Assembly (NCBI GenBank): GCA_035948355.1
Contig: DASZJF010000037.1
Location: forward strand, 5,019-69,018
Reading direction: 5' to 3'
Origin: Solirubrobacteraceae bacterium
GTDB lineage: Bacteria > Actinomycetota > Thermoleophilia > Solirubrobacterales > Solirubrobacteraceae
DNA: 64,000 nt
The position numbers and the translations under genes are program-made. Positions 4,598-58,083 of the stretch are shown here, in pieces; the first letter of the stretch is position 1, and every line of letters begins with the position of its first letter. Below the pieces are notes generated by a model. That model ran no database searches, was not told the origin of the DNA, and saw only the letters and a program-made list of their open reading frames with translations.

Positions 4598-5392
4598 ATG
4601 ACCATCACCTCCCCTCACAACCCGCACCTCAAAGAGCTGCGCCGGCTGGCGCGCCGGCGCGAGCGCGAGCGCGCGGGCCGATTCCTGGCCGAGGGCGAGG
4701 ATCTGATCATCGCCGCCGAGCGCGCCGGATGGCCGGCCGTCGAGGGCTACCGCGTGGCCGGCTCCGAGCTCGGCGGGACACGTTTCACCGACGTCGCGCC
4801 CGATGCGCTCGCGGCCGTCTCGGCGCTCGGCTCGGGCACGCGCGTGATCGGCGTCTACGAGCAGCGCTGGCTGGGCGCGCCCGCGGGCCCGCTGTGCGTG
4901 TACCTGCACGGTGTCCGCGACCCAGGCAACGTCGGCACGGTGCTGCGTAGCGCGACCGCTTTCGGCGCCTCCTGCGTGGCGCTCGGGCCGGACTGCGCCG
5001 ATCCCTATGGACCCAAGGCCGTGCGCGCGAGCATGGGCGCGGTGTTCGCCGTCGCGCTCGCGCGCGTACAGGCGACAGATGCAGCGGGGCCGCACGCGAT
5101 GGGGATATTCGACATGGCTTCGCTGCCGGGCGAGCGCATCGCGCTCGTCGCCGGGGCGGGCGAGCCGTTGGTGGAGCTGTGTACACGGCTCGGCGCTGCG
5201 AACGAAGGCCCGGGAGCGCTCACCCTGCTCGTCGGCTCAGAGCGCTCCGGGCTGCCTGAGGAAGTCGTGAGCGGGTGCGATCACGTCGCCCACATCCCCA
5301 TCGCGGCCGAGTCGCTCAACGCCGCGATGGCCGCGACCGTGGCACTGTACGAGACTACGACCCGCCGCTCGACTAGGGTCCGGGCGTCATGA
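4598..5392 (+). CDS. TrmH/SpoU (SPOUT) family RNA methyltransferase
   Basis: VRDPGNVGTVLRSA, KAVRASMG, LVGSERSGL, SLNAAMAA; conserved position between rplT and pheS. Confidence 0.93.
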   Translation: MTITSPHNPHLKELRRLARRRERERAGRFLAEGEDLIIAAERAGWPAVEGYRVAGSELGGTRFTDVAPDALAAVSALGSGTRVIGVYEQRWLGAPAGPLCVYLHGVRDPGNVGTVLRSATAFGASCVALGPDCADPYGPKAVRASMGAVFAVALARVQATDAAGPHAMGIFDMASLPGERIALVAGAGEPLVELCTRLGAANEGPGALTLLVGSERSGLPEEVVSGCDHVAHIPIAAESLNAAMAATVALYETTTRRSTRVRAS

Positions 5393-6537
5393 TCGAGCGG
5401 ATCGACGAGCTGAGCGCGCAGGCGCGGACGGCAATCGCCGGGGCCGACAGCGGTGAGGCCCTGGAGGAACTGCGGGTGCACTACCTCGGGCGCAAGGCCG
5501 AGCTGCCCCAACTGCTGCGCGGCGTGGCCGACCTGGAGCCCGAGCAGCGGGCGGCGGTCGGCAAGGCCGCCAACCGGGCGCGCCGGCAGCTGGAGGGCAT
5601 GATCGAGGCGCGGGCCGCCGAGCTGAGCGGCGCCGAGCTGGAGCGCCGGCTGCGCGAGGACCGCTGCGACGTGACGCTACCCGGAGCGCCTCCCCAGCCG
5701 CTCGGGCGGCTGCACGTCCTGACGAGCACGCGGCGACGCCTGGAAGACATCTTCCTCGGGCTCGGCTTCACCGTCATGGAGGGCCCTGAGGTCGAGACGG
5801 TTCACTACAACTTCGACGCGCTCAACCACTCACCGACGCACCCGGCCCGCGCGCGGACCGACACGTTCTATGTGGCTCAGGAGGGCGCGCAAAGCGCGCC
5901 CGGTCACGGCCGCCCGGAGGGCGGCCGTCCAAATCAGAACGCGGGGCGGGATGCCCCGCGGAGCAGTTCCGTGCTGCGGACACATACCTCGCCGATGCAG
6001 ATCCGGGCGATGGAGGCCCATCCGCCACCGCTGTACGTCGTCATCCCCGGACGCGTCTACCGCCCCGACTCCGACGCCACGCACACGCCCCAGTTTCATC
6101 AGATCGAGGGATTGGCAGTGGACGAGGACATCACGCTCGCCGATCTCAAGGGCACGCTGCTCGTGTTCGCGCGCGAGATGTTCGGAGATGCGCGCGAGGT
6201 GCGACTGCGCCCGCATTTCTTCCCCTTCACCGAGCCCAGCGTCGAGGTCGACGTCTCCTGCTTTCACTGCGACGGCCGGGGACATCTGCGCGACGGCTCG
6301 CGCTGCTACCTGTGCAAGGGCGAGGGCTGGCTGGAGGTGCTGGGCGCGGGCGAGGTCGATCCGAACGTGTACTCCTACGTAGCCACCACCGAGGCCAACT
6401 CCCCGGGCTATGACCCCGAGCGCGTCCAGGGCTTCGCCTGGGGCATGGGGATCGAGCGGATCGCGATGCTCATGCACGGCATCCCCGACCTGCGGCTGTA
6501 CTACGAAAACGATCTCAGGTTCTTGGAGCAGTTCTGA
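5389..6537 (+). CDS. pheS: Phenylalanine--tRNA ligase alpha subunit, with an in-frame ~27-aa insertion
   Basis: NFDALNHSPTHPAR, LRTHTSPMQIR, FHQIEGL, FPFTEPS, GFAWGMGIERIAM. Confidence 0.98.
   Translation: MIERIDELSAQARTAIAGADSGEALEELRVHYLGRKAELPQLLRGVADLEPEQRAAVGKAANRARRQLEGMIEARAAELSGAELERRLREDRCDVTLPGAPPQPLGRLHVLTSTRRRLEDIFLGLGFTVMEGPEVETVHYNFDALNHSPTHPARARTDTFYVAQEGAQSAPGHGRPEGGRPNQNAGRDAPRSSSVLRTHTSPMQIRAMEAHPPPLYVVIPGRVYRPDSDATHTPQFHQIEGLAVDEDITLADLKGTLLVFAREMFGDAREVRLRPHFFPFTEPSVEVDVSCFHCDGRGHLRDGSRCYLCKGEGWLEVLGAGEVDPNVYSYVATTEANSPGYDPERVQGFAWGMGIERIAMLMHGIPDLRLYYENDLRFLEQF
5883..5962 (+). repeat. Triple-hairpin repeat family A copy, in frame inside pheS
   Basis: Three hairpins (5883-5901, 5908-5926, 5940-5960). 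The architecture and the GTCAC-GG and AACGCGGGGC.GGATGC.CCGCGGA motifs match 56572-56647. Confidence 0.8.
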
Positions 6538-56530: not shown

Positions 56531-56571
56531 GTCCTCGTCATGAAACTCGTCTGCCACAACGCCAACCAAAA

Positions 56572-56647
56572 GCCGGGCGAAGCCCGGCGTCACGGGCGGC
56601 ACGATGCCGCACGTGGCCTTAAAACGCGGGGCCGGATGCTCCGCGGA
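56572..56647 (+). repeat. Triple-hairpin repeat family A copy upstream of leuC
   Basis: Same hairpin-GTCAC-hairpin-linker-hairpin layout as pheS 5883-5962, with different stem sequences. Confidence 0.8.
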
Positions 56648-56679
56648 CGTGACCAAAAACCGCGGCGCGGGAATGAACA

Positions 56680-58083
56680 ATGACAAAGCCGAAGAACATG
56701 TTCGAGAAGATCTGGGAGCGGCACGAGGTAGCCCACGGCCTCCTGTACATAGACCTGCACCTGGTACACGAGGTCACGAGCCCGCAGGCGTTCGACGGGT
56801 TGCGCCTGGCCGGCCGCACGGTGCGCCGCCCCGACCGCACGCTGGCGACGGCCGATCACAACACGCCGACCGACGGCACGCCCGTGGCGGCGCGCATCAA
56901 GGACGAGCTCTCGCGCGTGCAGGTGGAAACGCTGGAGCGCAACTGCGCGGAGTTCGGCGTGCCCGTGTATTCGCTCGGCTCGGACCGTCAGGGGATCGTG
57001 CACGTGATCGGCCCTGAGCTGGGGGTGACGCAGCCGGGCATGACGATCGTGTGCGGGGACTCGCACACCTCCACACATGGAGCGTTCGGGGCGCTGGCGT
57101 TCGGGATCGGCACGAGCGAGGTCGAGCACGTGCTGGCGACCCAGTGCATGGTTCAGCACAAGCCGCGCTCGATGCGCATCGCCTACGCGGGCGAGCTGGG
57201 GTTCGGGGTCACCGCCAAGGACCTGATCCTGGGCACGCTCGGGCGGCTGGGCGTTGGCGGGATGACCGGCCACGTCGTCGAGTACGCCGGGCCGGCGATC
57301 GAGGCGCTGTCGATGGAGGGACGGATGACCGTCTGCAACATGACGATCGAGGGCGGTGGTCGCGCCGGCATGATCGCACCCGACGAGACGACGTTCGCGT
57401 GGTTCACCGAGAACGAGCGTCCGGGCGCGCCCCGGGGCGCGGAGCTGGAGACGGCGATCGCGGCCTGGCGTGAGCTGAGCAGCGAGGAGGGCGCCGAGTT
57501 CGACAGCGAGGTGTCGATCGACGCGACGAAGATCTCCCCGCAGGTGACGTGGGGCACGAACCCCGGCATGGTGCGCGCGGTCACCGAGCGCGTGCCAGCG
57601 CCGGAGGAGTTCGACACTCCAGCCGATCGCGAGGCGACCGAACGCGCGCTGGCCTACATGGCCCTGGAGCCCGGCACGCCGATCGAAAGGATTGCGCTCG
57701 ATCGCGTGTTCATCGGCTCGTGCACGAACTCGCGCATCGGCGACCTGCGCGCCGCCGCCGAGGTCGTCGCGGGCCGCAAGGTCGCCTCCGGCGTCGACGC
57801 GATGGTCGTGCCCGGCTCTCAGCAGGTGAAGGCGCAGGCCGAGGCCGAGGGGCTCGATCGCGTGTTCCGCGAGGCCGGGTTCGACTGGCGAGTGGCGGGC
57901 TGCTCGATGTGCCTGGGGATGAACCCAGACATATTGCAGCCGGGCGAGCGCTGCGCTTCCACCTCGAACCGCAACTTCGAGGGTCGGCAAGGCAGGGGTG
58001 GGCGCACGCACCTCGTATCCCCACAGATGGCCGCCGCCGCGGCAATCGAGGGTCACTTCGTAGACATCAGGGATTGGAGCTAA
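56680..58083 (+). CDS. leuC: 3-isopropylmalate dehydratase large subunit
   Basis: [40 protein letters not shown]. Confidence 0.98.

Follow-up and report, generated by a model that had tools for sequence, protein, structure and literature searches.

The pheS gene of a Solirubrobacteraceae bacterium, which encodes the alpha subunit of phenylalanyl-tRNA synthetase (PheRS), carries an in-frame element of about 83 nt that folds into three hairpins and recurs in the 5′ leader of leuC. Both copies lie in the 64,000-nucleotide stretch of DNA analysed here (G000:C37:5019-69018, hereafter the window). The element represents a real, undescribed family of a known kind of bacterial repeat, and it has entered many unrelated sites, almost always in the orientation of transcription. 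The best explanation of the pheS insert, to which a probability of about 0.75 can be given, is that it is a copy of a non-autonomous three-hairpin interspersed repeat, about 80-85 nt in length and confined to part of Solirubrobacterales.

The source genome (G000; 2.6 Mb, 68.6% G+C) was placed in a genus of uncultured Solirubrobacteraceae, and every genome compared with it is a metagenome-assembled genome (MAG). A regular expression combined with a hairpin descriptor detected two more copies in G000 beyond the pair in the window. The first covariance model (R1) was seeded with three clean copies whose structure was written by hand, because MAFFT aligned hairpin 1 wrongly; an improved model (R2) was used for the census of the genus and the order. 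The pheS, leuC-leader, and nuoF/nuoG copies of G000 score 86-91 bits with R1 (E ~1e-13), a degraded copy upstream of pepA scores 31 bits, and a decayed copy in the spacer between trpS and scpA, detected with R2, brings the number in G000 to five.

Within the genus, R2 detected the element in 73 of 151 genomes, with 0 to 51 copies per genome (51 in G066 and 14 in G214), and more than 250 further model matches are located at unrelated loci; these counts include orthologous copies and hence are not independent. In the order-level search with the same model, the element was present in 14 of 39 genomes of family f1 and 22 of 39 of family f3, and was not found in families f2 (0/18), f4 (0/38), f5 (0/15), and f6 (0/1). 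No match to the element was detected in 125 genomes from other Thermoleophilia families. The window gave no Rfam match at the gathering threshold, permissive Rfam scans of four good copies returned nothing meaningful, and no description of the element was found in the searchable literature. The original prediction, which was made from the letters of the window, had proposed a structured mobile element, not recognised as a described family in Actinomycetota, and had suggested a covariance-model scan for further copies. The proposal is borne out by these results, by the spread in copy number among congeners, and by the tandem arrays and base-precise empty sites described below.

Structure and covariation of the element

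The product of the single-copy pheS gene (one match in G000) reads ...DTFYVAQEGAQSAPGHGRPEGGRPNQNAGRDAPRSSSVLRTHTS... and carries QEGAQSAPGHGRPEGGRPNQNAGRDAPRSS between its DTFY and LRTHTS motifs, where extra residues had been predicted. Solved PheRS alpha chains from P. aeruginosa (4p71_C) and E. coli (3pco_A) confirm them: residues 1-162 and 193-382 of PheS align with these chains, while residues 163-192 are placed between positions 160 and 163 of 4p71_C, i.e., about 30 extra residues at a tight turn. The solved-structure alignment was used for loop placement instead of an AlphaFold2 model of PheS, which was unusable for this purpose (mean predicted local distance difference test score, pLDDT, 52). 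In the PheS tree, G000 is grouped with G003, G094, and G023 at 100/100 support. A comparison of pheS orthologues had been suggested as a source of empty sites, and these three sisters do lack the element, in the form of a replacement: 9 nt of sister sequence correspond in G000 to a 93-nt segment, in which the 83-nt core has a 5′ CAGGA extension and is followed by GTTCC, with a net gain of 84 nt (28 codons).

The pheS copy folds into three hairpins with a minimum free energy (MFE) of -59.6 kcal/mol (z = -5.2), and none of 200 shuffled sequences is equally stable; the leuC-leader copy also forms three hairpins (-50.3 kcal/mol, z = -4.2). Thus, the three-hairpin fold predicted at 5883-5962 and its recurrence at 56572-56647 both hold, the latter as a covariance-model match with slightly wider bounds (Table 1). 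The layout of hairpins and linkers is also as it had been described, except that the CAC of the supposed GTCAC linker belongs to hairpin 2. In the leuC leader (56644-56666), the 3′ arm of hairpin 3, CCGCGG, could instead pair with a second CCGCGG located 13 nt downstream.

The core is 78-86 nt long across the family. Structure statistics were obtained from 86 copies (31 in an earlier version), in which 86% of the alignment cells assigned to helices form standard pairs, versus 36-40% when the partners are slid. Compensatory changes, i.e., changes on both sides, occur in 22 of the 24 base pairs, and none of 500 shuffles matches the observed covariation. Helices 1 and 3 are each 95% paired, with compensatory changes in 5/5 and 7/8 pairs, respectively, and in helix 2 such changes affect 10/11 pairs. 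The constant parts are C-GNA-G, GGTCA, C-NGGAN-G, TCAG, C-NGGAU-G, and the GGAG tail, all of which are single-stranded or closing pairs; the stems covary, whereas GGA in the tail and in the loops of both hairpin 2 and hairpin 3 shows 80-90% conservation. From the two copies in the window, the stems of hairpins 1 and 2 had been noted to differ in sequence and yet pair, which holds for the family. The accompanying claim that hairpin 3 is conserved in sequence does not extend to the wider family, because hairpin 3 also covaries.

Copies that occupy the same site in different species are also informative. Among them, 24 pairs have changed on both sides and yet still pair, including 4 in pheS; some decay is seen in 43 pairs. 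These same-site compensatory changes imply that the hairpins have been maintained in place and not only inherited from different source copies. Judged from such comparisons, the structure and the loops of the element appear to be under selection after insertion. Two other readings of the fold were rejected: a terminator, as there are no U-tracts, and a hammerhead-like motif on the antisense strand (CTGATG), which has no GAAA, no three-way junction, and no Rfam match.

Table 1. Coordinates of pheS, the two element copies, and associated features in the window
Feature	Position in window	Strand	Evidence or family consensus
pheS (phenylalanyl-tRNA synthetase alpha subunit), carries in-frame element	5389..6537	+	Open reading frame (ORF); matches to PheRS alpha in PDB, E = 2e-102
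Segment replacing 9 nt (CCCGACACG, Pro-Asp-Thr) of sister pheS	5878..5970, 93 nt	+	DNA comparison with G003, G094, G023
Element core, pheS copy (covariance-model positions 1-83)	5883..5965	+	R1 91 bits, E = 7e-14; R2 87.8 bits
Hairpin 1: GGGCGCGC-AAA-GCGCGCCC	5883..5901	+	Fold; family consensus C-GNA-G triloop
Conserved GGTCA before hairpin 2	5902-5906	+	80-90% conserved in family
Hairpin 2: ACGGCCGCCC-GGA-GGGCGGCCGT, 10 bp	5906..5928	+	Fold; loop consensus NGGAN
Unpaired linker CCAAATCAGAA	5929..5939	+	Family consensus ..aTCAg..
Hairpin 3: CGCGGGGC-GGGAT-GCCCCGCG	5940..5960	+	Fold; loop consensus NGGAU
3′ tail GGAGCA	5960..5965	+	Tail GGAG constant in family
Element core, second window copy, leuC 5′ leader	56571..56650	+	R1 85.8 bits; empty site in G023, G003, G094
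leuC start codon, 30 nt past element	56680..56682	+	Orthologous starts in sister genomes

Insertion sites and operon junctions

Filled and empty versions of the same site reveal how the element is placed. At site A, the empty sequence of G007 is GCGCG-ATGA-TCGTC, and the filled sequence of G066 is GCGCG-ATGA-[GGACC...GAGC-ATGA]-AAATC; at site B, CT-GTGA-CCTTC of G007 and G002 corresponds to CT-ATGA-[GGGTC...GGAGC-ATGA]-CCTTC of G066. Both junctions are base-precise, with entry into a 4-nt stop/start overlap and the tetranucleotide at both ends of the element. With ATGA or GTGA on either side, TGA is retained for the upstream gene and ATG for the downstream gene. Two sites filled in G000 are empty in G023, G003, and G094, which have a TGATG overlap between nuoF and nuoG and a stop-GGAGG-N6-ATG arrangement in the leuC leader. 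The direct repeat ACCAAAA stands on either side of the leuC-leader copy (56563-56569 and 56652-56658). Over all copies, direct repeats shared by the two flanks of one copy are longer than those shared by flanks taken from different copies (mean 4.15 versus 3.81 nt, reached by 2 of 2000 permutations), and flank repeats of at least 6 nt occur in 14% of same-copy pairs versus 4% of cross-copy pairs.

The neighbours of the element, called on the basis of periodicity in third-position G+C (GC3) and Pfam, mostly belong to housekeeping operons (nuo, atp, leu, suc, and ribosomal proteins). Pfam-annotated junctions include nuoF-nuoG, leuC-leuD, atpD-atpC, sucC-sucD, rplK-rplA, rpsK-rpsD, and rpsQ-rplN, and other Pfam-annotated neighbours include nuoJ, rpsM, grpE, recO, kdpA, and pntA. 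The downstream gene is co-oriented with the element in 70 of 78 cases and the upstream gene in 54 of 70. The 5′ end is often the stop codon of the upstream gene (TGAGG.., GTGAGC.., or CTAGGG..), whereas the 3′ end either places GGAG(G) 4-10 nt ahead of the next start codon or runs straight into GC-ATG-A; the distance from the end of the element to the next start is at most 12 nt in 32 of 70 cases. TGA is found at the 5′ boundary of 34% and at the 3′ boundary of 38% of copies, against a background near 10% per window of comparison, and at both boundaries in 23% versus an expected value of about 1%.

A short reading frame (mini-ORF) spans the element in part of the family. At sites A and B, it begins with the 5′ ATG, runs for 27 codons, and terminates at the 3′ TGA, so that a -4 overlap at each end connects the stop of the upstream gene with the start of the downstream one. 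Among 28 copies with an NTGA overlap, about 17 have a frame of 27-30 codons whose stop falls on or next to the following start codon (ATGA, TGATG, TAATG, or TGAnATG). Two or more sense frames lack stop codons in 81 of 86 copies, and no frame is closed in 38 of 86 sense strands versus 3 of 86 antisense strands. Because the frame relative to the hairpins differs between subfamilies, no peptide is conserved, and openness alone is kept.

The element also occurs in tandem. An array in G066 (G066:C91:13976-14290, locus L222) consists of four units of 79-80 nt arranged head to tail, with GCA-TGA-GGG at the joints; it directly precedes a gene starting MNHLLSIEDLDR, and its final unit ends in the ATG of that gene. 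Since the period is 3n-1, the mini-ORF of each unit is shifted in frame by one. Doublets were observed in G098, G090, G266, and G214.

Some copies have other relations to their neighbours. At loci L034, L035, L173, L190, L200, and L208, the upstream ORF reads through the element and stops at or just past its 3′ end, and the element supplies the last 22-30 residues or so of the upstream protein as a C-terminal extension. The subfamily nearest to the pheS copy is found at loci L014, L170, L179, L180, and L015 (G025, G083, G065, G146, and G009), where it fills most of a gap of about 110 nt between divergent starts, in the order CAT-CTCAGAGGA-[element]-15 nt-TTG. These divergent-gap copies are located upstream of a GT4 glycosyltransferase gene, and little room is left for promoters.

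Copies inside proteins

Six of the 86 examined copies are located in protein-coding sequence. In-frame copies are present in pheS (G000, G079, G031, and a truncated one in G021), grpE (G021 and G086), and carB (G066), in agreement with the prediction that the element creates peptide loops in essential proteins. The grpE copy reads EEARRASGQRPAGSRPSSSERGPGGLAE and the carB copy KAVRGADGQGSPEGSPSSQNTGLQAPRS; neither is present in the corresponding gene of G000. The reading phase is identical throughout in the pheS and carB copies, and the grpE copy shares the GGT-CAN phase and is then shifted by one base within hairpin 2. At the grpE site, the empty sequence CAGGACGA|TCCG becomes CAGGAGGA|[element...GCGGAGGA]|CTCT on filling, with GGAGGA at both ends; this repeat mimics the tail of the element itself.

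The four pheS carriers fall into different well-supported clades of the PheS tree calculated with the loop masked, and the pheS copies of G000, G079, and G021 share junction sequence past the hairpins (CTCAGG(G)A and GGAGCAG). Three histories could account for the shared junctions: a single old insertion with later losses, transfer of a short tract, or several insertions that came from the same subfamily. Recombination of a longer pheS tract was also considered, and none is evident: the flanks of the insert in G000 resemble those of its sisters, not those of G079.

The loop between DTFY and LRTHTS (window 5869-5979; loci L040-L089) is an indel hotspot in the genus, and sister species often differ in its length. 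Its length is 7 residues in roughly half of the 80 genomes compared and 11-48 residues in the others. RLGxPE(D/E)LV forms the end of many unrelated inserts in this loop that are rich in Gly/Ala/Pro. The other long inserts gave no match with R1 or R2, and their fold z-scores are mostly near 0; the idea that they are decayed copies of the element is unsupported, the peptide alignment being of low complexity and unconvincing. The different pheS insert of G066 is not repeated elsewhere in the G066 genome. The original prediction had named, as outcomes that would speak against it, a lack of further copies and a pheS insertion shared with distant relatives that lack the hairpins. The loop does prove hypervariable (7-48 residues), with most long inserts unrelated to the element, and many further copies nevertheless exist.

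Elsewhere in PheS, two small insertions relative to P. aeruginosa PheRS alpha (~HLRDGSR and ATTEANSP; window 6270-6400, residues ~296-340) flank a Cys-rich CxxC...CxxC segment in the solved-structure alignment. A signature indel of Thermoleophilia PheRS alpha has been reported at positions 244-285, away from the loop that holds the element (PMC6544083), and one of the two small insertions may be this indel.

Origin of the element and relation to known repeats

With regard to the mechanism, the unit in the cleanest insertions entered the ATGA or GTGA stop/start overlap between two genes of an operon. In junction copies, the upstream stop would then be linked to the downstream start either by the mini-ORF or by the GGAG(G) tail at Shine-Dalgarno spacing, so that the element could sit in an operon without uncoupling translation, and for this reason would be tolerated there. 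The stop-free sense strand would likewise let the element survive in frame in a permissive surface loop, where its landing would add about 28-30 Gly/Pro/Arg/Ser-rich residues to PheS, GrpE, or CarB. The agent that selects for the structure and the loops might be the copying machinery or an RNA-binding factor.

Several observations weigh against the interpretation as a mobile repeat. The nuoF-nuoG and leuC inserts of G000 are 140-155 nt long, exceed the core, and show no clean duplication, and the flank-repeat signal over all copies is modest. The mini-ORF is present in a subset of copies only, and no peptide is conserved. The dispersed copies of G066 are at most 85% identical in pairwise comparison, with a median of 57%, which argues against a recent burst of faithful copying and fits either an old spread with compensatory evolution in place or a copying process that diversifies the stems. 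Furthermore, no mobilising gene was found. A search for a co-occurring transposase had been suggested, and none was found: the Y1/RAYT family (PF01797) was absent from the five genomes searched (G000, G066, G098, G021, and G023), whereas control genomes matched, and absence from a MAG is not proof; TnpB (PF07282) was absent from the copy-rich genomes searched; and IS110 occurs in some genomes and was not found in G066 (51 copies) or G214 (14), and thus does not track copy number. A search for Y2 transposases carries no information, as the control genomes were silent. The missing transposase is weak evidence, because MAGs often lose insertion sequence (IS) elements.

A host-functional RNA module is a tentative and rather unlikely alternative, in which binding of CsrA, another RNA-binding protein, or the 30S subunit to the two GGA-loop hairpins and the GGAG tail of a polycistronic mRNA would be the reason for the retention of the element and perhaps also for its spread. 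The junctions would then be under post-transcriptional control, or the transcript would be stabilised, and mobility would be the mode of arrival, which makes this view compatible with a mobile repeat. The conserved GGA triplets over covarying stems are consistent with such a role, as are the hairpins kept at the same site by compensatory changes across species whose PheS proteins are only about 80% identical; on the other hand, the copies in pheS, grpE, and carB have no junction to regulate. The consensus for CsrA from systematic evolution of ligands by exponential enrichment (SELEX) is RUACARGGAUGU, and some loops of the element read ACAGGAUGU, which resembles it, although they are pentaloops, one base below the canonical CsrA hexaloop. 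The best near-miss of the whole element in Rfam is RsmW, a CsrA-sponge family, but with 15.7 bits (gathering score 52; E = 0.88) the match is at chance level.

CsrA is uncommon in Actinomycetota. The protein (PF02599) is encoded in G000 (G000:C30:10746-10901), and across the order 138 of 151 genomes have it. Within genus g3, CsrA is present in every one of the five carriers of the element, and the five genomes without CsrA had no element match among those listed; however, this pattern comes from 13 related genomes that are not independent. CsrA is equally common in the element-free families f2, f4, and f5 and in element-free genomes such as G023, and because it is near-universal in the order, the phyletic link was rejected as evidence. 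A role of CsrA in reading the GGA loops is, on the sequence data, possible but unsupported.

An extended form of this idea, which appears unlikely, is that the element is a portable operon-junction cassette (stop, mini-ORF, GGA-loop hairpins, Shine-Dalgarno sequence, and start) that would be kept for post-transcriptional control of the junction via CsrA or another loop-reading factor and be copied without a transposase by a microhomology-primed, RNA- or single-strand-templated process. Such copying would explain the repeats that mimic the element's own 3′ end (GGAG..TGA), the strict sense orientation, and the unshared stems in the genome with 51 copies.

It is still less probable that the element is of REP/REPIN or IS200/IS605 type. 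Its hairpins would then serve as recognition sites of a Y1 HUH transposase (RAYT/TnpA), which would cut single-stranded DNA beside a short target (TGA) and produce insertions in one orientation without true duplication. IS608-type ends have no terminal inverted repeats, carry end hairpins, and are inserted in one orientation at a constant short target. The element resembles them in its hairpins at both ends, its single orientation, the TGA beside the left end and at the right end, and the absence of terminal inverted repeats, none of which could be seen when the consensus and individual ends were inspected, with no formal scan for them. Besides the negative PF01797 and TnpB searches, neither a GTAG-type motif nor inverted REPIN pairs are present, and the orientation that follows the genes (70/78) is better explained by transcription or translation than by the direction of replication: G266 is a one-contig genome, and each half of it contains copies in both orientations (origin not mapped).

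Finally, an ordinary lineage-specific indel of the PheS loop, with the hairpins as by-products of GC-rich low complexity and the leuC look-alike as coincidence, could draw on the variability of the loop and its many long, unstructured inserts unrelated to the element, but is already refuted by the copy census and the covariation in all three helices, together with the model scores (E ~1e-13), the more than 250 matches elsewhere, and the base-precise junctions; its variant, a gene-specific leader or attenuator for leuC and pheS, is equally improbable, as the element adjoins dozens of unrelated genes and is thus neither leu- nor phe-specific.

Among known systems, the mobile repeat is most similar to mycobacterial interspersed repetitive units (MIRUs; Supply et al. 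1997), which are described as 40-100 bp units in operon spacers, co-oriented with their neighbours and bounded by tetranucleotide direct repeats at filled sites, which insert at start codons and contain an internal ORF coupled at -4 (ATGA) (PMC3184786, PMC12548453). The likeness extends to an Actinomycetota host, a unit of 40-100 bp in operon spacers that is co-oriented with the flanking genes, and filled and empty sites with tetranucleotide repeats (here ATGA/GTGA, as well as GGAGGA and ACCAAAA). It further includes an internal ORF with -4 coupling (here in a subset of copies), GC-rich internal inverted repeats, head-to-tail arrays, and no known transposase in either. The present family is found in class Thermoleophilia, and the comparison with MIRUs concerns layout, not sequence. 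It differs from them in its three-hairpin architecture with strong covariation and constant loops, in some in-frame protein copies, and in its range of 0-51 copies within a genus.

The Rickettsia palindromic elements (RPEs; Ogata et al. 2000), which the original prediction had offered as the analogy, are in-frame palindromic inserts in housekeeping proteins of Rickettsia (PMC10969869, PMC3184786). Both are palindromic and non-autonomous, both lie in frame in unrelated housekeeping proteins where they add a function-compatible peptide, and for neither is a mobilising mechanism known. The analogy therefore stands for the in-frame protein copies. It does not stand for the family as a whole: RPEs are described there as about 100-150 bp long and with a large share in ORFs, whereas the units in Solirubrobacterales are about 83 nt long, 6 of 86 are coding, and most copies occupy stop-to-start junctions in operons. 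Since about nine-tenths of the copies are intercistronic, not intragenic, MIRUs are the closer analogue.

Other short repeats and RNAs are more distant. REP/BIME and REPIN-RAYT sequences are likewise short hairpin repeats of high G+C content that lie in the transcribed spacers of operons and may affect mRNA. They differ in having one imperfect palindrome of about 35 nt with a conserved 5′ tetranucleotide, often in inverted pairs, instead of three distinct hairpins; in the present family, no RAYT/Y1 was found, and the copies have one orientation, direct and not inverted arrays, and precise stop/start placement. MITEs (miniature transposable elements with inverted repeats) of the DDE type have terminal inverted repeats that match an IS family, which were not seen here on inspection. 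CsrA-binding RNAs of the CsrB/RsmZ type (CsrB/Rsm clan, Rfam CL00106) share several hairpins with GGA in the loop and a genome that encodes CsrA, whereas in the present family there is no separate small RNA gene, each unit has two GGA loops, the RsmW score is far below the threshold, and no phyletic link to CsrA is apparent.

This is the first characterised interspersed repeat family for Thermoleophilia, a mostly uncultured soil lineage, and it comes with a usable covariance model. For annotation, it explains the 28-30-residue inserts in PheS, GrpE, and CarB as well as long spacers in the housekeeping operons of carrier genomes. The constant loops on covarying stems point to a specific reader, either the copying machinery or an RNA-binding protein, which is experimentally approachable. 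The element joins two insertion habits that are commonly treated apart, MIRU-type entry into stop/start overlaps with translational coupling preserved and RPE-type in-frame entry into essential proteins, and both may follow from one property, namely, a structured unit with a stop-free sense strand.

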